Assembly (NCBI GenBank): GCA_934778215.1
Contig: CAKVOE010000002.1
Coordinates: 105,829-169,828, forward strand
DNA from: an uncultured Clostridia bacterium
GTDB lineage: Bacteria; Bacillota; Clostridia; Christensenellales; UBA1242
DNA length: 64,000 bases
Direction of reading: 5' to 3'
Made by a program: the position numbers and the translations under genes. This document shows positions 6,751-14,241 of the stretch, in pieces; position 1 is the first letter of the stretch, and each line of letters starts with the position of its first letter. The notes under the pieces were generated by a model, which had not been told where the DNA came from, searched no databases, and was given only the letters and a program-made list of their open reading frames with translations.

Positions 6751-7830
6751 ATGGGATTTTTTTCAAAGAACTTAACACTTAAAATTTTAGACTGGGAAGA
6801 CCAAAGCAAAAACACAATGGTTTACAAATTCCCTATGGACGGAAGAAAGATATTTTTTGGTTCAAAACTAACCGTTCGAGAATCACAAATGGCGGTATTT
6901 TTAAACAAGGGCGAAATTGCCGATGTTTTTGAGCCAGGAATGTACACACTACATTCTTCTAACCTACCAATTTTATCTAACCTACTTGGCCTACCATACG
7001 GGTTTAAGTCGCCATTTTTTGCAGATGTATATTTTGTTTCTACAAAACAATTTACCAACCTAAAATGGGGCACAACCAACCCTATTACAATGCGAGATAA
7101 AGACTTTGGCACCATTCGCATAAGAGCGTACGGTTCTTACGCATTTAGAGTTGCCGACCCTGCATTATTTTTAAAAGAACTTTTTGGCACAAACTCATCA
7201 TTTACAACCGAAGATATAACGTCTTATTTAAGAAGTATGCTAATTTCTTGCATCTCGGACACCATCGCAGAATCAAAAATTAGCGCACTTGACCTTGCAA
7301 GCAACTTAATGGAGTTTAACAAGCAAGTAAAAGAAAATGTAAAAACACACTTTGCCGAACTTGGCTTAACCTTAACAAATTGCGTTATCGAAAACATCAG
7401 CTTCCCAGAAAGCGTAGAAAAGGCAATTGACACCCGCTCTTCTATGGGTATTTTGGATCAATCTATGGACACCTATATAAAAATGAAGTCTGCCGATGCC
7501 ATTGGCGACCTTGCAAAAAACCAAGGAATGGGTGGCGTAGGTATGCAAATAGGCACAAGTGTGGCAATGGGTCAAATGATGAAAGACCAAATTGAAGGTG
7601 CTTTTAGCAAAAATCCAAAAACCGAAACTACTACAAACGCATCAAGTTCTACAACACCTACAACAAAGGCTTGTCCTAAGTGTGGCGCCATGAACAAACA
7701 AAACGCAAAATTCTGCTTTGAATGTGGCGAAAAATTGCCTGCAAAGGTCGAAAAGTTCTGCCCAGAGTGTGGAACAAAGGTTTCCGAAAAGGCTAAATTT
7801 TGTCCAGAGTGTGGAACAAAACTAAAATAA
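6751..7830 (+). CDS. SPFH-domain protein of the YdjI / COG4260 type with a C-terminal triple zinc-ribbon tail
   Basis: The N-terminus MGFFSK...ILDWEDQSKNTMVYKFPMDGRKIFFGSKLTVRESQMAVFLNKGEIADVFEPGMYTL is typical of YdjI-like SPFH proteins. The C-terminus has CPKCG..CFECG, CPECG, CPECG repeats. Confidence 0.65.
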   Translation: MGFFSKNLTLKILDWEDQSKNTMVYKFPMDGRKIFFGSKLTVRESQMAVFLNKGEIADVFEPGMYTLHSSNLPILSNLLGLPYGFKSPFFADVYFVSTKQFTNLKWGTTNPITMRDKDFGTIRIRAYGSYAFRVADPALFLKELFGTNSSFTTEDITSYLRSMLISCISDTIAESKISALDLASNLMEFNKQVKENVKTHFAELGLTLTNCVIENISFPESVEKAIDTRSSMGILDQSMDTYIKMKSADAIGDLAKNQGMGGVGMQIGTSVAMGQMMKDQIEGAFSKNPKTETTTNASSSTTPTTKACPKCGAMNKQNAKFCFECGEKLPAKVEKFCPECGTKVSEKAKFCPECGTKLK

Positions 7831-7881: not shown

Positions 7882-8910
7882 ATGAAACAAATTTTAAATC
7901 GCTGTAAAGCGTGCGGAGCAATCACTTCATACGATATCGCAGGAAGCGCAGTTGGTTGCCCCTTTTGCCATACGGCGGAGCCATTAAACCTAGACCGTGG
8001 CTTTCCTAAAAAAAATGAATACAGCAATAATAGTAACTTTTTGCCTTTTAAAGAGTTGTTACAAATATATAAATGTACCAATTGTGGTTGCATATACGAA
8101 AGCAAGGACGAACGCTCCAACAACTGCCCTTCTTGTGGTTCGGGCAATTTTTTGATAACCTCTACACTAAACTCTGTACCAGATGCCATACTTCCATTTT
8201 TGCTTTCAAAATCAGTGGCTTCTAAACATTTCAAAAAGTGGACAAGACGCAAATGGTTTGCTCCGCACGACTTAAAAAAGGTTGCGTCATTAGATAGTGC
8301 CGAGCCAATTTATTATCCTCTTTTTGTGCTAGACGCAGAAAACCGCTTTGACTACTCAGGCGTAGGAATTATTAACCGCACCGACTCCAAAGGCAACAGT
8401 ATAACAAAGCGCTGTCCTTTTTCGGATTCTTTAAATACATCTATAAGAAGTATGCTTATTCCCGCAACCGACAAAATTAGTGCAGGGGCAATAAATAGCC
8501 TTGCACCATTTAAACTATCTTGCACCACCAAATTTGATAAAAGATATTTGTATGGCTTTTCGGCTTGTCCTACAACTATAAGCGCCAACGATTGCTACCA
8601 AAAAGCAAAAGAGCAAATTCAAAGGCAAAACATAGCAGAAGCCACAAGCAATAAAAGGCTAGTTTATGATAATATCTTAAATTTAACCGGAACAACTACC
8701 CTATCTAGCCCCGCATTTGCACTTTGCTACGCCCCCCTTTGGAAGGCATCGTACACCTACAAGCAAAAAAAATATAATTGCTACATAAATGGAACCACCG
8801 GAAAAACCGCCGGCGTTGCCCCATTAAGCAAACTAAAAGTTGGACTATTTACCTTAGGCCTTGTGGCTCTTATTGCAGGGATTGTTTTACTAATTACGCA
8901 CTTTTCTTAA
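7882..8910 (+). CDS. Zinc-ribbon protein with a C-terminal TM anchor (YdjG-like architecture)
   Basis: CKACG...CPFCH and CTNCG...CPSCG pairs in the N-terminal 90 aa. C-terminal TM LFTLGLVALIAGIVLLI. As I recall, the length and layout resemble B. subtilis YdjG. Confidence 0.35.
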   Translation: MKQILNRCKACGAITSYDIAGSAVGCPFCHTAEPLNLDRGFPKKNEYSNNSNFLPFKELLQIYKCTNCGCIYESKDERSNNCPSCGSGNFLITSTLNSVPDAILPFLLSKSVASKHFKKWTRRKWFAPHDLKKVASLDSAEPIYYPLFVLDAENRFDYSGVGIINRTDSKGNSITKRCPFSDSLNTSIRSMLIPATDKISAGAINSLAPFKLSCTTKFDKRYLYGFSACPTTISANDCYQKAKEQIQRQNIAEATSNKRLVYDNILNLTGTTTLSSPAFALCYAPLWKASYTYKQKKYNCYINGTTGKTAGVAPLSKLKVGLFTLGLVALIAGIVLLITHFS

Positions 8911-8976: not shown

Positions 8977-9025
8977 ATATTAGTCTTTTGGGATTGTTCC
9001 CAAAGACACAACCCCTTCTTTATAT

Positions 9026-9101
9026 GGGAGTTTAGCTCAGCTGGGAGAGCATCTGCCTTACAAGCAGGCGGTCGTAGGTTCGAGTCCTACAACTCCCACC
9101 A
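9026..9101 (+). tRNA. tRNA-Val (anticodon TAC)
   Basis: A 76-nt cloverleaf, GGGAGTT..AACTCCCACCA. Anticodon arm TCTGC-CTTACAA-GCAGG, T-arm GTAGGTTCGAGTCCTAC, encoded CCA. Confidence 0.95.
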
Positions 9102-9114
9102 TAACCTAGGGTAC

Positions 9115-9144
9115 GCCGTGAATTTATTTCACGGCTATTTTTTT
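9115..9144 (+). terminator. Rho-independent terminator after tRNA-Val
   Basis: GCCGTGA-atttatt-TCACGGC followed by TATTTTTTT. It lies inside the 5' extension of the track ORF 9118.., which argues against that extension. Confidence 0.7.
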
Positions 9145-9162
9145 ATAAAAATGGAGAAAAAT

Positions 9163-9798
9163 ATGCAAATAGAACCCATTGTTAGCACCAACGGAATGGA
9201 CCAAAATTCTTACCTTGTATACACAGATAACGCTTTGGTTATAATTGACGCAGGCTGTGACATTTCGGTGCTAAATTCCACCTTAATTCGCTTAAATTTG
9301 GCAAGCCGAAAGATTGATGCGGTAATTTTAACCCACACGCATTTTGACCATATTTTTGGGCTTTATGATATATTTAAAGCATTTTGTCCGCCAATTTATA
9401 TACACAAAGATTGCACCGACTTTTTGTTTGATAAAATTAAAAATGCTAGTTGCTATTTTGACGACTTTAATTTGCCCGAAGTTGTTAGGCAAAATATTGT
9501 TGAAGTCTTTGATAATCAATGCCTTAGTATAAATGATTTAATCTTTAAAATTCTATTTACCCCCGGCCACTCAAAGTGCTCAATGTGCATATTAGTAAAA
9601 AACATTTTGTTTACTGGCGATACAATTTTGCAAGGCTCTGTGGGTAGAACCGACCTATTTGGCGGAAGTTATGCAGAGTTACAAAACTCTTTAAACAGAA
9701 TAAAATCTTTAACCTTTGATACCGCCTACCCCGGCCACGGCAGAGCCCTTTCATATAACTTAGTTATGGGAATTATTAGGTTTAATAAAAAAATCTAA
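9163..9798 (+). CDS. MBL-fold metallo-hydrolase (glyoxalase II-like)
   Basis: LTHTHFDHIFG (HxHxDH motif), TPGHS, and GDT..GSVGRTDL. Start set at MQIEPI with a GGAGA RBS 6 nt upstream. Confidence 0.85.
   Translation: MQIEPIVSTNGMDQNSYLVYTDNALVIIDAGCDISVLNSTLIRLNLASRKIDAVILTHTHFDHIFGLYDIFKAFCPPIYIHKDCTDFLFDKIKNASCYFDDFNLPEVVRQNIVEVFDNQCLSINDLIFKILFTPGHSKCSMCILVKNILFTGDTILQGSVGRTDLFGGSYAELQNSLNRIKSLTFDTAYPGHGRALSYNLVMGIIRFNKKI
9727..9788. repeat. Direct repeat copy 1 (the functional 3' end of the MBL gene)
   Basis: The 48-nt stretch 9741-9788 is identical to 12290-12337. Weaker similarity extends about 14 nt further upstream. Confidence 0.95.
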
Positions 9799-9842
9799 CA
9801 CAAACTACTTGCGTTAGATTTTAAATGAAATAATATATCTCC

Positions 9843-10033
9843 ACACTCAATAAAGAACTTTTAATAAAAGTTGTTATTAGTATAAATTATAGGAAGTAAA
9901 TTTTGAAACAAGTTCAAAATTTGTGCTAACGCACTCGCAAAGCAATGCTTTGTACTTCCAATTTGAATAACCATCAGTCTCGCTGGAGAGTAAACTCTCC
10001 GACTCAACTTCCGATAATATAACTATTGAGTGT
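9843..10033. ncRNA. Candidate structured RNA or MITE-like element of unknown class (about 190 nt, multi-hairpin)
   Basis: Outer pair ACACTCAATA (9843-9852) with TATTGAGTGT (10024-10033). Inner helices: AACTTTT/AAAAGTT (9856-9872); GGAAGTA/TACTTCC (9892-9959), which encloses three hairpins (AAATTTTGAA..TTCAAAATTT, GTGC-TAAC-GCAC, CAAAGCA-A-TGCTTTG); and GGAGAG-TAAA-CTCTCC (9985-10000). Strand undetermined. Confidence 0.35.
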
Positions 10034-10119
10034 TTAATTTTTATTAATAGAAAATAGTAATTTTTTATACACTTACTTAGTTTTAGTATGTGTTTGATAT
10101 TTATTTAATATGTTTTTTG

Positions 10120-11850
10120 CTAAATATTTTCTACCATAAACATATTTTTAAAGTCTTGGTTAATTGCAAATAATTCTTCAAAAGTTCCTTCGCCTTTTAT
10201 GTTGCCATTTTCTAAAAAATAAATCTTGTCAGCATTTTTAATTGTTGACAAACGATGTGCAACAATTATTACTGTGCTGTTTTTTGAAAGAGCGTCTATG
10301 CTCTTTTTTATTTCTGCTTGTGCGAAGTTATCTAATGACGAAGTACTCTCATCAAATAAAATAACTTTTGTTTTTCTTAAAAGTGAACGAGCTATTGCTA
10401 ACCTTTGTTTTTGTCCGCCAGATAGTTTTATTCCACTCTCGCCAACCTTTGTATCTAGCCCTTTTGGAAGCGAAGATATAAACTCCCATATACTTGCATC
10501 TTTACACGCTTTTATTAATTCTTCTTCCGTTGCATCTTTTTTAACCATTAAAAGATTTTTGCGGATAGAATTGTCAAAAATATATGGAAACTGATTTACC
10601 ATACTTATATTTTCACGCAAGTACTTTTTGCTTAAATCTTTGACATTTATATCATCTAAAAGCACTTCTCCATCTTTGCAATCGGTAAGTTTACTTATTA
10701 AATTTAATATTGTAGTTTTACCCGAACCACTCTTTCCTACAAAGGCTACCGTAGTATTTGGTTTGATTGTAAAATTTAAGTTTTTTAACACATACGTTTC
10801 TTCTTTGTCGCCTTCATCTTGATATGCAAAATCAACATTTTTAAACTCAATTTTTCCTTCACAACTATTTGGAATTATTTCGCCAAATCGCTCGGTTGGA
10901 TATTTTTCATCATCTAAAATTTCAAACATACGCTTTATGCTCAATTTTGCCTCGCTAAAATTGTTTGCTATATTGCCAACTATCCACACAACCTCAGAAA
11001 TAGAACTTCTGTTCATTAAAACATACAAGAAACTTGTTAAAGCAAGTTTTCCATCTTTTAATAAAAATATTGACACCAAGGATACCACACCAAGCATAAT
11101 TACTATTATAAATTGTCTAAAATTCCAAAAGAACACATCAATTGCGTCACGCTTTTTTGAAATCGCCCTGTATCCATCGCAACATTTTTCTGTTTCTTTC
11201 GTTAAATTAGCATCTAAATTTAATGATTTTATATCTCTTTCAGATCTAACAATTTCATTAACCAAGCCAAGCATTTTGTCTTTTTCTTCTTTTTTCTTTT
11301 TGGTGTTTTTTACTTTGATTTTAATCTTAATATTTTCTAAGATAAACAACACCGTCAAAAATGCGACCAAAATTAAACCAATATATACATTTAAAAATAA
11401 AATATATACCGTTGTAATTGTAAATGACATAAGTTTAGCAAAGTCATCTAAAACACCATCTAACATATCTAGTGCATTTTCGGGATCATAGCACACACGG
11501 TTGATAAAATCGCCCGACTTAACATTGCTAAAAGTTTGAGTTTTTATTTTAAAAAATTGCTTCGTTAAATCTAATTGAATATCATAAGACAAGTCACTTC
11601 TAATAGTTACAAATATGCGACAAGACCAAAAATATAATATCCTACCTATTAAGGTAACCGCAACAACCAACGCACCAGCAATTATCGCATTTCTGTAATT
11701 GCCTGCACTAATTTCTGCAATAAAATCTGCAAGTTTAATTGTAGCAAAAATATTTCCCGCATTAAAAAGTAAAACTGTTAAAATGTATATTGCTATCTTT
11801 AACTTATATTTTTTTAAATATGTAAATAATCCAGTCTTATTCTTTTTCAT
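10120..11850 (-). CDS. ABC transporter, fused permease/ATP-binding protein (type I exporter, MsbA/MdlB-like); no peptidase domain
   Basis: Six-TM N-terminal half. Walker A GKSGSGKTT, signature LSGGQKQRLAIAR, Walker B ILFDESTSSLD. Start moved to MKKNKTGLF (RBS GAGAGGA). Confidence 0.9.
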   Translation of the reverse strand: MKKNKTGLFTYLKKYKLKIAIYILTVLLFNAGNIFATIKLADFIAEISAGNYRNAIIAGALVVAVTLIGRILYFWSCRIFVTIRSDLSYDIQLDLTKQFFKIKTQTFSNVKSGDFINRVCYDPENALDMLDGVLDDFAKLMSFTITTVYILFLNVYIGLILVAFLTVLFILENIKIKIKVKNTKKKKEEKDKMLGLVNEIVRSERDIKSLNLDANLTKETEKCCDGYRAISKKRDAIDVFFWNFRQFIIVIMLGVVSLVSIFLLKDGKLALTSFLYVLMNRSSISEVVWIVGNIANNFSEAKLSIKRMFEILDDEKYPTERFGEIIPNSCEGKIEFKNVDFAYQDEGDKEETYVLKNLNFTIKPNTTVAFVGKSGSGKTTILNLISKLTDCKDGEVLLDDINVKDLSKKYLRENISMVNQFPYIFDNSIRKNLLMVKKDATEEELIKACKDASIWEFISSLPKGLDTKVGESGIKLSGGQKQRLAIARSLLRKTKVILFDESTSSLDNFAQAEIKKSIDALSKNSTVIIVAHRLSTIKNADKIYFLENGNIKGEGTFEELFAINQDFKNMFMVENI

Positions 11851-12010
11851 AATTAATTTCCTCTCTTTTACGTAAAAGTTTGTTAGCATTAAATAAGATA
11901 TTGTTTTAATTATTAATTGCAATTTTTGTACAAAATTTTTAGATAAAAAATCTTGCTAAAAGCATTTGTATACAATTTTTCGTTAAAACACTCTACTTAT
12001 CTTTTCGTAA

Positions 12011-12041
12011 AAAAAATCACACCCAACTTTTGCGGTGTGAC
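12011..12041 (-). terminator. Rho-independent terminator between the 23-codon ORF and the ABC exporter
   Basis: Minus strand: TCACACC-gcaaaagttg-GGTGTGA followed by TTTTTTTT. It starts about 20 nt after the small-ORF stop. Confidence 0.7.
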
Positions 12042-12063
12042 TTTGAGTTTCAAAAATTAATTA

Positions 12064-12135
12064 CTAAAAAAACAACTCACCAAAAGAGATACCACAAAAA
12101 TTAACATAATTTAATTTACTAACACTATTGTTCAT
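12064..12135 (-). CDS. Unannotated 23-aa ORF, MNNSVSKLNYVNFCGISFGELFF (candidate exported peptide or regulatory leader peptide)
   Basis: Below the ORF-track size cut-off and translated by hand. Perfect SD AAGGAGG 8 nt upstream of the ATG, own promoter upstream, terminator downstream. Confidence 0.55.
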   Translation of the reverse strand: MNNSVSKLNYVNFCGISFGELFF

Positions 12136-12167
12136 TTTTTATACCTCCTTTTTAAATTTCTACTATT

Positions 12168-12196
12168 ACTCTAACACGCATCGGCGTGTTTGTCAA
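12168..12196 (-). promoter_or_regulatory. Promoter of the 23-codon ORF with a palindromic operator in the spacer
   Basis: Minus strand: TTGACA (12196..12191), 17-nt spacer, TAGAGT (12173..12168). The spacer contains the palindrome AACACGC-cgat-GCGTGTT (12173-12190). Confidence 0.55.
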
Positions 12197-12274
12197 CCCC
12201 AAAACTACAAAAAGCAAAATTATTTTAACTTTTCTTTTTCGCTCTCTGTGAAGTGACTGAGTTTAGACAGTTTT

Positions 12275-12337
12275 TACCACCGGTCACAGCAGAGCCCTTT
12301 CATATAACTTAGTTATGGGAATTATTAGGTTTAATAA
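12275..12337. repeat. Direct repeat copy 2 (orphan relic of an MBL-gene 3' end)
   Basis: 12290-12337 is identical to 9741-9788. In frame it reads ..TGHSRALSYNLVMGIIRFNN*, compared with ..PGHGRALSYNLVMGIIRFNKKI* in the intact gene. No ORF lies upstream of it. Confidence 0.9.
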
Positions 12338-12450
12338 TTAAACAATTCTAAAATTTGTAAATTATTGCCCTTCCATTATTGGTTTAATTTTAAATAAATT
12401 CATTATGCAAAAATATAAAACTTTACACCCCGATAGGAACAAGATTGCTC

Positions 12451-12479
12451 TTGACAAACTTATTTATGCGTGCTAAAAT
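12451..12479 (+). promoter_or_regulatory. Sigma-A promoter of the Fic-family gene
   Basis: TTGACA (12451-12456), 17 nt, TAAAAT (12474-12479). Confidence 0.6.
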
Positions 12480-12523
12480 AAACTAATTAAACAATAGAAT
12501 ATATAGTTTTTTAAGGGATTTTT

Positions 12524-13510
12524 ATGAGAAAGAATAAGTTTAATATAAGCGAAAAAGCGTTTAGAATAATTGAAGACAGCGTATTATTAGAAGGATTTAA
12601 TTATGACGCAAGCACAGTATTTCCTTCTGGAAAAGACTATTTTAAAACCATAGACAAAGACACCGTGGTTGCATTTTTGGAATGTCCGGATACCGAGGTT
12701 GTAGCCGTAAAAACGGGTTCAAATAACTATGAACTTGTTGCAACAAACCGCCAAGCAAATGAATCTATAAGAATATCAGGGCTTGGCAATCACTTTGTTG
12801 CTCTTGTAAGAGTGGTTTTGCAAGCAAAAAAGCAATTAGCAAACCCAACAGAGCCAAAGATAACCAATAATTTTATCAAATCAATAAATGAACAATTGTT
12901 GTTAAATCGTATGGGCGAGGTTGCCATAGGTTCATACCGCTACAAAGACTTTTGGGGCAGAGATGCCGATGTGTCTATTTGTAGCATCGAAAACGGAAGA
13001 AAGATTCGCCAAAGCACTTTTAACACCGAACCAAGCGCAGATAAAAATGTTTATAAAAAGATGGACGAACTGGTTAACTGGGTTAATAATGACGCCTTTA
13101 AAGACAGCGAATCAATTATGTATGATATTGCCAAATTTCATTCTACCTTTATAAGAATTTACCCATTTCGTGATGGCAACGGCAGAACAGCCCGACTTTT
13201 AACAAACTATTTGTTGTTAATTAATGGCTACCCACTTGTAAACATTCCACCAGCAGGCGTTAAACAATATCACTGTGCAATTAATTACGCCGAAGCAACA
13301 ACCGATAAAGACTTTTGCCGAGATGATTACTATAATAACGCTTATGCCTATTATGCAAAAAGATTTGGCAAGCGAGATGATGTTACCAAATATTGCCCTC
13401 TTGCCGATTTTTTTGAGCGACACCTTTTAGAATCTAGTAACACGCTTATAAATAATATAATAAACTATAAAAACACACAATCACATATAGAATCTACTCA
13501 AATTCAATAA
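12524..13510 (+). CDS. Fic/DOC-family protein with a degenerate active-site motif (Tyr in place of the catalytic His)
   Basis: FHSTFIRIYPFRDGNGRTARLL matches the Fic core HxFx(D/E)GNGRxxR except for the first residue (TAC Tyr at 13160-13162). An SVLLEG (S/TxxxE-G/N-like) stretch lies at residues 19-24. Confidence 0.8.
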   Translation: MRKNKFNISEKAFRIIEDSVLLEGFNYDASTVFPSGKDYFKTIDKDTVVAFLECPDTEVVAVKTGSNNYELVATNRQANESIRISGLGNHFVALVRVVLQAKKQLANPTEPKITNNFIKSINEQLLLNRMGEVAIGSYRYKDFWGRDADVSICSIENGRKIRQSTFNTEPSADKNVYKKMDELVNWVNNDAFKDSESIMYDIAKFHSTFIRIYPFRDGNGRTARLLTNYLLLINGYPLVNIPPAGVKQYHCAINYAEATTDKDFCRDDYYNNAYAYYAKRFGKRDDVTKYCPLADFFERHLLESSNTLINNIINYKNTQSHIESTQIQ

Positions 13511-13563
13511 CACAAAAAGACTAAACAGCAAAAAATGTTGTTTAGTCTTTTTTTATTGCTAAA

Positions 13564-14241
13564 TTACTTTGCGTCATTTTTATGAATTTTTGCATTAACA
13601 AAGTAAAACAGTTTTATTAAATAATGCACCGCCGTTAATAACACCACATAAAATAATGCTACTAACAACACATTATATATCATACGGTCAAACAAATACA
13701 AATATGTTGGCTTAATTACATAATAAATAAATGCCACACCAACCGGCTTCATATCATAAAATTCTAGCGCATAACAAATTATTCCCAAAACGGCTATCCA
13801 AATAGTGTATAATTTTTGACGGTCGAACTTGTATAACTTCATAAGTTGCAACCCCGCCGTTAGCAAAAAGCCATGACACAATATTCCTATAATTATTTCT
13901 TTTATGGTAAACACTTCCGCAAGACTTCCGCCCGCCACTATATAATATACAAAATAACCTAGTCCTGTAATAATTCCCAAAAAGGAAGCAATGTTATATA
14001 CCTTTTCTAAATTAAATATCAGTACAATTGCAATTATAAAATAACTTAGCGTACTAATTTCAAACGGAAACCACGCAACATCTGTTGTTATATTATAATA
14101 AACATAAAAACATATTTTGTATACAAGCAAAAATATACTGATAATTCGAAGCGATATTAAAGTGTATCTAAATTTAAAAAGTAAGTAGTTTAATGCTAAA
14201 AACACCACAAAACCCAGTGTCGCAAGTAGATTATAGTTCAT
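13564..14241 (-). CDS. Polytopic integral membrane protein, function unknown
   Basis: About 7 hydrophobic helices. Start moved to MNYNLLATL (RBS GGGAGA). Confidence 0.5.
   Translation of the reverse strand: MNYNLLATLGFVVFLALNYLLFKFRYTLISLRIISIFLLVYKICFYVYYNITTDVAWFPFEISTLSYFIIAIVLIFNLEKVYNIASFLGIITGLGYFVYYIVAGGSLAEVFTIKEIIIGILCHGFLLTAGLQLMKLYKFDRQKLYTIWIAVLGIICYALEFYDMKPVGVAFIYYVIKPTYLYLFDRMIYNVLLVALFYVVLLTAVHYLIKLFYFVNAKIHKNDAK

Follow-up and report, generated by a model that had tools for sequence, protein, structure and literature searches.

A 23-codon leader ORF as the probable core of a ribosome-dependent attenuator upstream of an ABC exporter gene in an uncultured Clostridia bacterium

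On the minus strand of a 64,000-nucleotide (nt) stretch of the genome of an uncultured Clostridia bacterium (contig CAKVOE010000002.1; we refer to the whole stretch as the window), a 23-codon open reading frame (ORF) with its own promoter and terminator precedes a gene for an ATP-binding cassette (ABC) exporter. We conclude that the exporter gene is very probably controlled by a ribosome-dependent transcription attenuator of which this ORF is the leader. The computed basis for this conclusion is that the leader transcript can adopt three mutually exclusive structures, that these structures are conserved and covary among related lineages, that the ORF itself is conserved, and that relatives lack room for a promoter between the leader and the exporter gene. 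From these observations we infer where on the leader a ribosome would have to be held, what kind of inducer could hold it there, and what an operator-like palindrome in the promoter might contribute.

An earlier note on this DNA, made from the letters alone, had listed the promoter, the palindrome, the Shine-Dalgarno (SD) sequence, the 23-codon ORF and the terminator, and we recovered all of them on the minus strand where it had placed them. It had offered two readings of the ORF: (a) a short peptide exported by the ABC protein, or (b) a leader that attenuates the exporter gene as in the bmrB-bmrCD system of Bacillus subtilis, and it had leaned slightly towards (a) for want of a convincing antiterminator. 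That ground falls away, because a conserved and covarying antiterminator (AT) exists between ORF codons 12–19 and the 5′ half of the terminator. Together with a conserved anti-antiterminator (AAT), in which the SD sequence pairs with an anti-SD in codons 15–18, and the conserved terminator, the AT supports reading (b), and an unconserved peptide, frozen pairing nucleotides and the absence of linked partner genes leave reading (a) unsupported.

The leader, the terminator and the exporter gene form a conserved unit

The gene that begins 158 nt after the U-tract of the terminator encodes, as the earlier note had recognized, a peptidase-less type I ABC exporter, with ABC_membrane and ABC_tran as its only Pfam domains. 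The protein is a generic half-transporter resembling Sav1866, MsbA and ABCB1; no NCBIfam equivalog reached its cut-off for it, and an exact look-up of the window protein found it not on record. Its homologues fall into a tight orthologue group of 61–99% identity and a second tier of ~45–48% identity, and the genomes nearest to the window are metagenome-assembled genomes of uncultured human-gut Clostridia. We gathered the upstream regions of 13 lineages of the orthologue group and of two lineages of the 47–48% tier (L115 and L117). All of the recovered lineages, with ABC proteins 47–99% identical to that of the window, had the same layout of promoter, strong SD sequence, ATG, 20–23-codon ORF, terminator and ABC gene, with the promoter missing only from L114, whose contig starts at the SD sequence. 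A metagenome scan with the orthologue alignment returned 80 loci, two of which were useful (L026 and L027), the others being generic ABC exporters of 25–40% identity. A 39%-identical homologue in Candidatus Onthoplasma had a plain promoter without a leader. Because the flanking genes change from lineage to lineage (Fic in the window; Amidase_6, MurB, LRR or Peptidase_M3 elsewhere), the leader and the exporter gene make up a self-contained unit.

The terminator hairpin (AAGUCACACC...GGUGUGAUUU) has a folding energy of −14.8 kcal/mol (z = −2.8), and its stem begins 20 nt past the leader stop codon. A consensus terminator scan missed this hairpin because its loop exceeds the 8-nt limit of the scan, and we relied on folding and conservation instead: the terminator was kept in all 13 orthologue lineages and also in L115 and L117, with compensatory changes at 5 of 11 stem pairs. 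The earlier note had raised the question of whether the ABC gene might be transcribed from a promoter of its own. On its minus strand, the spacer between the U-tract and the ABC gene (11851–12008) contained nothing that a consensus scan recognized as promoter-like, and in six relatives (L003, L026, L106, L107, L108 and L112) the gap between the U-tract and the ABC start codon is only 19–40 nt, so that no promoter fits and the exporter gene of these relatives needs read-through of the terminator.

The length of this spacer varies among close relatives. The window, L001, L002 and L027 share a spacer of 158 nt, whereas that of the 87%-identical L106 (1465–1500) measures only 35 nt, which makes the spacer of the window's clade longer by ~120 nt. 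The more distant L117 differs in another way: there the 47%-identical homologue comes second in a tandem pair of ABC genes, and a separate promoter, 22-codon leader and terminator lie between the two ABC genes (1039–1203). The 3′ strand of that terminator (AUCAAAAGGAGG followed by U6) doubles as the SD sequence of the ABC gene, so that transcriptional and translational attenuation would be combined in L117.

Selection maintains the frame and the pairing nucleotides of the leader

The leader reading frame was open in all 13 lineages tested, where chance would leave it open in 10–17% of cases per lineage and, on the assumption of independent lineages, in all 13 with a joint probability of ~1e-11; one to six stops interrupted each of the other two frames. 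The ORF comprised 23 codons in 11 of the 13 orthologue lineages (22 in L003 and 20 in L114), and the leaders of L115 and L117 had 21 and 22 codons, respectively. In the window the SD sequence AAGGAGG (12150–12144) is positioned 8 nt 5′ of the ATG at 12135, and the ATG lay 8–9 nt 3′ of a canonical GGAGG in each of the six lineages that we compared base by base (the window, L001, L106, L026, L107 and L108). We presume that the ORF is translated. A search with nhmmer found no second copy of the leader in the window.

The peptide itself was poorly conserved (Table 2). Its C terminus and net charge varied freely among lineages, and its only well-conserved stretch was codons 12–18, which is the segment engaged in RNA pairing. 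Between the window and L106, the leader had accumulated nine non-synonymous and three synonymous codon changes (3:1), as opposed to 77 and 199 in the ABC gene (0.39:1; Fisher p = 0.0013). Between the window and L001, three of the four changed leader codons were non-synonymous, and not one nucleotide had changed in ORF nt 10–62, for a pair of lineages whose ABC genes have a third-codon-position identity of 0.77 (23% differ). The combination of frozen pairing nucleotides with free amino-acid changes indicates selection on the nucleotides and on an open frame, not on the peptide. Thus, when homologous cassettes are compared, as the earlier note had proposed, what proves to be kept is the ORF, its position and its RNA pairing, and not the peptide sequence. 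Leader ORFs this short escape gene-calling cut-offs, and conservation of position, frame and RNA pairing can tell regulatory leaders from peptide genes.

One short peptide motif did recur. The tripeptide K-[F/L/I]-N (AAA-UUN-AAU) was present in 9 of 13 leader peptides (those of the window, L106, L003, L004, L109, L110, L113, L115 and L117), at positions 4–12, with an expectation of 2–7% per peptide, figures to be read with the lineages being related and the motif having been noticed post hoc. In the window it reads K-L-N and occupies codons 7–9. The motif may act in ribosome arrest, may work as an RNA or pause motif, or may reflect a bias towards AT-rich codons.

These patterns bear directly on reading (a), in which the ORF would encode a functional unmodified peptide (a pheromone, a leaderless bacteriocin or a PSM-like peptide) exported by the ABC protein, with a leaky terminator setting the ratio of peptide to exporter. 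The strong SD sequence, the retention of the ORF in all lineages and the recurring tripeptide would fit such a peptide, as would the precedent of LsbB, a leaderless 30-amino-acid bacteriocin that is secreted by the multidrug-resistance-type ABC protein LmrB and likewise involves a very small leaderless ORF beside a peptidase-less ABC exporter (PMC6131525). However, LsbB-like peptides have a conserved receptor-binding region at the C terminus, which is the least conserved part of the peptides described here; sequence and charge are also free to vary among lineages, the ratio of non-synonymous to synonymous changes is far from that of the ABC gene, and the conserved codons 12–18 coincide with a pairing segment that covaries with the terminator and the SD sequence. 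Among the lineages compared, we found no receptor, kinase, Rgg/PlcR-type regulator, immunity or processing gene that travels with the cassette, its neighbours being different in each lineage, and the exporter has no C39 peptidase domain. An exported peptide would, moreover, leave both the AAT and the AT unexplained, and we regard it as highly improbable.

Table 2. Leader peptides of nine lineages and, for four of them, the two strands of the antiterminator
Lineage	Leader peptide	AT strand in ORF	AT strand in terminator
Window	MNNSVSKLNYVNFCGISFGELFF	UUUUUGUGGU	ACCGCAAAAG
L106	MSIKVEKINCVNFCSISFGGLIF		
L107	MSVKLINKIMFNVSGVLLGIDLL		
L026	MSEDISIKFIFNYYSVSLGGYSF		
L004	MSKSFKQKLNIVTSVAFFLGDRF	GCGUGGC	GCCACGC
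L003	MSKFRNKFNLNICSASFLWIKN		
L110	MSYKFNRELQYFFALPLLCDKKF		
L112	MCVKFYDNYNYIFAVLLFDCLNY	UUUUUGC-GUAC	GUACGCAAAAA
L114	MNKAFNRKNNLIMRGLKVFF	UGCGUGGC	GCCACGCA

An antiterminator inside the ORF covaries with the terminator

The 5′ half of the terminator has a second pairing partner within the leader ORF. When we scanned each 14-nt segment of the leader against the terminator 5′ half in each lineage, the best partner lay inside ORF codons 11–19 in 11 of 13 lineages; it lay further 3′ in the other two (codons 19–23 in the window and codons 16–21 in L109), for which the scan target had been shortened at the loop. The AT thus defined pairs region 2 of the leader with region 3 (Table 1). The duplex of these two regions had an energy of −16.4 kcal/mol in the window, and across lineages the mean was −15.8 kcal/mol for regions taken from the same lineage versus −10.3 kcal/mol for regions taken from different lineages, with none of 20,000 partner permutations equalling the own-lineage mean.

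Where the terminator stem differed among lineages, the ORF segment differed to match (Table 2). In L106, for example, a change of ORF G43 to A is compensated by a change of C to U in the terminator 5′ strand, and in L027 a change of G to A in the loop converts a U-G wobble of the AT into a U-A pair. Given regions 2 and 3 only, RNAalifold recovered an AT helix of 12 pairs, with compensatory changes at 7 of them (8 in a separate pair count). Within this helix 84.6% of alignment cells were paired, versus 38–45% when one partner was slid by 1–3 columns, and the covariation score was 0.43 versus 0.07–0.15 in the slid controls, a value reached by none of 500 shuffles.

The anti-antiterminator is built with the leader's own SD sequence

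The 3′ part of region 2 is complementary to the SD region. In the minimum free energy (MFE) fold of the window leader, the SD region (region 1) was paired with ORF nt +44 to +54. Downstream of the SD region, the sequence that pairs best with it lay at +38 to +57 in each of the 13 lineages, with SD:anti-SD energies of −8.6 to −14.5 kcal/mol compared with −3 to −9 kcal/mol for the next best site. The unconstrained MFE fold of every leader consisted of this SD:anti-SD hairpin and the terminator. The register of the AAT helix moved by up to 2 nt among lineages, such that the pairing was kept and not the exact sequence, and in L115 the helix used the spacer just 3′ of the SD sequence. Applied to the whole leader, RNAalifold returned the terminator only, because MAFFT shifts the SD register and the register of the AAT helix varies; we therefore assessed the AAT sequence by sequence.

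The AAT, AT and terminator can all be described in terms of RNA only, and SD and anti-SD tracts pair regardless of ribosomes, which would be compatible with a switch that operates independently of translation (a riboswitch or a protein-bound antiterminator), with the ORF and the SD-like purine tract as by-products. Such a switch would not account for a frame that stays open in every lineage when the alternative frames are interrupted, for an ORF that has 20–23 codons everywhere examined, or for the nearly fixed distance from GGAGG to ATG in six lineages. In addition, cmscan of positions 9000–14000 found no Rfam leader or riboswitch match at E ≤ 1, its only match being a tRNA (9026–9098), and the interior of the AAT hairpin varied in sequence, with no conserved junction resembling a ligand pocket. 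We therefore give hardly any credence to a translation-independent switch.

Table 1. Features of the leader cassette in the window
Feature	Positions	Strand	Basis or role
−35 hexamer, TTGACA	12191..12196	−	sequence read and promoter scan
Operator-like palindrome, AACACGCCGATGCGTGTT (AACACGC-CGAT-GCGTGTT), filling the promoter spacer	12173..12190	.	motif search
−10 hexamer, TAGAGT, with TG extended −10 in front	12168..12173	−	promoter scan
Region 1, leader SD region (core AAGGAGG 12150-12144), AAT 5′ strand	12141..12151	−	MFE fold
Leader ORF, 23 codons and stop, peptide MNNSVSKLNYVNFCGISFGELFF	12064..12135	−	ORF translation
Region 2, ORF nt +33 to +56, codons 12–19	12080..12103	−	5′ part is AT strand; 3′ part is anti-SD
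Anti-SD, GUAUCUCUUUU, codons 15–18, 3′ part of region 2	12092-12082	−	folding
Region 3, A-tract, terminator 5′ strand and loop (CUCAAAGUCACACCGCAAAAG)	12027..12047	−	AT partner of region 2
Intrinsic terminator, hairpin 12043-12014 and U8 12016-12009	12009..12043	−	folding and conservation
Spacer from terminator to ABC start, 158 nt	11851..12008	−	promoter scan negative
Regulated gene, ABCB-like exporter, homodimer-type, transmembrane and nucleotide-binding domains, 576 amino acids	10120..11850	−	Pfam ABC_membrane and ABC_tran

A model for read-through controlled by early ribosome arrest

We propose that the three mutually exclusive folds, namely the AAT (regions 1 and 2), the AT (regions 2 and 3) and the terminator (regions 3 and 4, followed by U8), would be selected by the position of the ribosome. 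Without a ribosome, the AAT would be transcribed first and would trap region 2, allowing the terminator to form. An unimpeded ribosome would cover region 2 and free it late, and the terminator would again form. The default, with or without normal translation, would thus be for transcription to stop at ~12009–12016. A ribosome held on the SD sequence, at the start codon or within the first few codons would instead occupy region 1 and leave region 2 free to capture region 3 before region 4 is made, and RNA polymerase would then read into the ABC gene. The likeliest trigger would be some form of translational stress, such as an inhibitor of translation, that halts ribosomes near the beginning of the ORF, and the operator in the promoter spacer may add control of initiation by a putative DNA-binding protein.

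Folding the leader with and without a ribosome footprint, a comparison that the earlier note had suggested, gave the AAT and the terminator as the default and a shift towards the AT when the SD sequence and start codon were blocked. With these two elements forced to be unpaired, the probability of the terminator at equilibrium was at most 0.23 in 7 of the 13 lineages. In transcripts ending before the terminator 3′ strand, the AT formed in all 13 lineages, with 0.52–0.85 of region 3 paired with region 2. A footprint on codons 12–18 or on the stop codon left the terminator intact. Footprints at codons 3–9 did not flip the terminator either, a result that we treat as a limit of the model and not as evidence, since nothing in the energy calculation prevents the SD:anti-SD helix from closing around the ribosome.

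Several points weigh against an attenuator of this kind. The leaders of L110, L112, L113 and L114, which have very strong terminators, did not flip to the AT at equilibrium when the SD sequence was blocked, so that a switch in these lineages would have to be kinetic. The thermodynamic model freed region 2 only with a ribosome at codon 1, and the effect of ribosomes at codons 2 to ~7 is a steric argument and not a computed one. Truncated transcripts often favoured the AT over the AAT even without a ribosome, which makes the off state dependent on the order of folding. The 158-nt spacer of the window could hide a weak promoter beyond the reach of a consensus scan. Kinship among the lineages makes the figures from shuffles and permutations look more significant than they are, although the evidence points consistently in one direction. 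Finally, that the ORF is translated, that transcription ends at the U-tract and that the exporter gene is inducible are predictions here, and the link to antibiotics is by analogy only.

Instead of arrest by a drug, a leader with three alternative structures might also sense how much of an amino acid or charged tRNA is available, or the overall capacity for translation, in the manner of trp, his, leu or tet(M)-like attenuators. The three-structure architecture is the same as that of the classical attenuators, and read-through at bmrB also depends on slow codons (PMC4191407). However, no single regulatory codon forms a run or recurs at a conserved position in the 13 peptides, and the target is an exporter rather than a biosynthetic or uptake gene. 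The stall site of a classical attenuator, moreover, lies just upstream of the AT strand, whereas here the SD sequence is itself part of the structure to be opened, which points to arrest at or near initiation. We consider a signal from amino-acid or tRNA supply to be quite improbable.

A further alternative keeps ribosome arrest and assigns a larger role to the peptide. In this scenario, which we think unlikely, the leaders would be a new family of arrest peptides with a fixed length of ~23 codons, in which K-[F/L/I]-N makes the ribosome arrest in the presence of one specific small molecule encountered in the gut, and the operator would provide a second, independent input, such that the exporter is switched on only when both inputs coincide. 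The small molecule could be a drug or a compound that comes from bile or the diet. If such arrest peptides did exist here, the SD-sequestering AAT would limit sensing to the first ribosome, loaded co-transcriptionally.

Relation to known attenuators

The cassette that we describe as an attenuator is another example of an established type and adds no new principle; it is distinctive only in using the SD sequence of the leader itself as one strand of the AAT. In B. subtilis, the ABC multidrug exporter BmrCD is controlled by ribosome-mediated transcriptional attenuation and is induced by lincomycin, chloramphenicol and erythromycin through the translated upstream ORF bmrB (Reilman et al. 2014; PMC4191407). 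Like bmrB-bmrCD, the window cassette places a small upstream ORF (translated in bmrB, predicted to be so here) and an ABCB-type exporter gene on one transcript with a terminator in between, has predicted AT and AAT alternatives, and has a second layer of control at the promoter, a putative one in the window; a slower ribosome, we propose, would likewise favour read-through. The two systems differ in that bmrB has 53 codons and contains the terminator, whereas the 23-codon ORF of the window ends 20 nt before it; in the use of the leader's own SD sequence by the AAT of the window; and in that the window encodes a single half-transporter, presumably a homodimer, whereas BmrC and BmrD form a heterodimer. 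Induction was demonstrated by experiment for bmrB and is proposed for the window leader.

The leader of B. subtilis vmlR contains an upstream ORF (uORF) within an AAT hairpin, followed by an AT and then a terminator, and its three-state logic was established by experiment (Takada et al. 2022; PMC9226507). The logic that we propose for the window is the same, in that a ribosome stalled on the uORF blocks the AAT so that the AT forms and the terminator does not, with arrest at or near initiation as the effective event. However, the vmlR uORF has three codons (MIN) and a single-stranded SD sequence, as opposed to 23 codons and an SD sequence that is an AAT strand in the window, and VmlR is a soluble ABC-F ribosome-protection factor, whereas the window gene encodes a membrane exporter.

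Attenuators of this sort are common in Gram-positive bacteria according to a passage in PMC5418344 that cites Dar et al. 2016. Antibiotic-responsive leaders include the translational attenuators ermC, cat and cmlA and Term-seq finds such as lmo0919 (PMC5418344), which resemble the window leader in having a short leader peptide, alternative hairpins and the ribosome as drug sensor. The translational attenuators act by freeing the SD sequence of the resistance gene, whereas the output proposed for the window is transcriptional read-through. Sequestering of the ABC gene's own SD sequence, as at ermC and cat, was not evident in the window, where that sequence lies ~150 nt past the terminator, and was seen only in the distant relative L117.

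Inducible efflux or resistance has, to our knowledge, hardly been characterized in uncultured human-gut Clostridia, and the cassette gives a concrete, testable model of how an efflux-type ABC transporter could be regulated in them. With its small size, three defined pairing segments and natural compensatory variants, the self-contained leader lends itself to transplantation into reporters for inducer screens, and the identity of an inducer would hint at the substrate of the exporter.

The promoter spacer carries a conserved operator-like palindrome

Upstream of the leader, TTGACA (12196–12191) and TAGAGT (12173–12168) are separated by a 17-nt spacer. In this AT-rich DNA (32–35% GC) a promoter scan returned 7 promoter-like matches versus 7.2 expected, so that a match as such is at chance level and the case for the features rests on conservation: a perfect TTGACA with a 17-nt spacer was found in all 15 related leaders that were recovered with their promoter region.

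The sequence AACAC-N8-GTGTT occurs once in the 64 kb (0.07 expected). Its consensus among the relatives is AACAC-nCCGAnnn-GTGTT, with the asymmetric centre nCCGAnnn retained, and it lies directly 3′ of the −35 hexamer in 10 of the 15 promoters, with a shifted copy in L109 bringing the total to 11 of 15; it is not present in the promoters of L003, L107 and L108. The 3′ half of the palindrome overlaps the TG of the extended −10, and the 5′ half has no promoter role. In the simplest reading of the sequence, the palindrome is a putative repressor site, which would give control of the exporter a second, promoter-level input through a putative binding protein. Searches found no regulator gene linked to the palindrome and no second copy of it in the window.

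In L109, in the promoter upstream of position 564, AACAC-N8-GTGTT has moved 8 nt downstream and encloses the −10 hexamer TATAGT instead of filling the spacer, which suggests that the site is kept for protein binding and not for promoter geometry.

Two assignments to known classes of site were considered. Sites for extracytoplasmic function (ECF) sigma factors have AAC and CGT ~16–17 nt apart, and we rejected this assignment because the corresponding spacing here is ~9 nt. The PadR-type motif is ATGT-N8-ACAT; its N8 spacing fits the palindrome, but the sequence and orientation of the half-sites differ, and we did not adopt it.

Just upstream of the −35 hexamer, positions 12200–12295 of the minus strand contain two adjoining hairpins with a joint energy of −26.6 kcal/mol (z = −2.4). 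The first is GC-rich and spans ~55 nt (GCUCUGCUGUGAC...GUCACUUCACAGAGAGC). The second is AT-rich and terminator-like, with a U-run, and is kept in L001, L002 and L027 and not in L106; it may shield the leader promoter from transcription that enters from upstream, or it may be what is left of a small RNA.

Neighbouring genes

A gene for a 328-amino-acid Fic/DOC-domain protein (12524–13510, plus strand) is divergent from the cassette and has a promoter-like site at 12451–12479 that matches 11 of 12 consensus positions and includes a TG. The Fic/DOC gene is not conserved beside the cassette in relatives and is thus probably unrelated to it. On the other side, ~1 kb downstream of the ABC stop codon and on the opposite strand, lies the tRNA gene (9026–9098, plus strand; Rfam RF00005, 71.6 bits), after which comes a gene of the metallo-beta-lactamase fold (9118–9798). 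Further along are plus-strand genes for an SPFH/Band-7 protein with C-terminal double zinc ribbons (6751–7830) and, following it, for a 342-amino-acid protein with weak zinc-ribbon-like matches (7882–8910).

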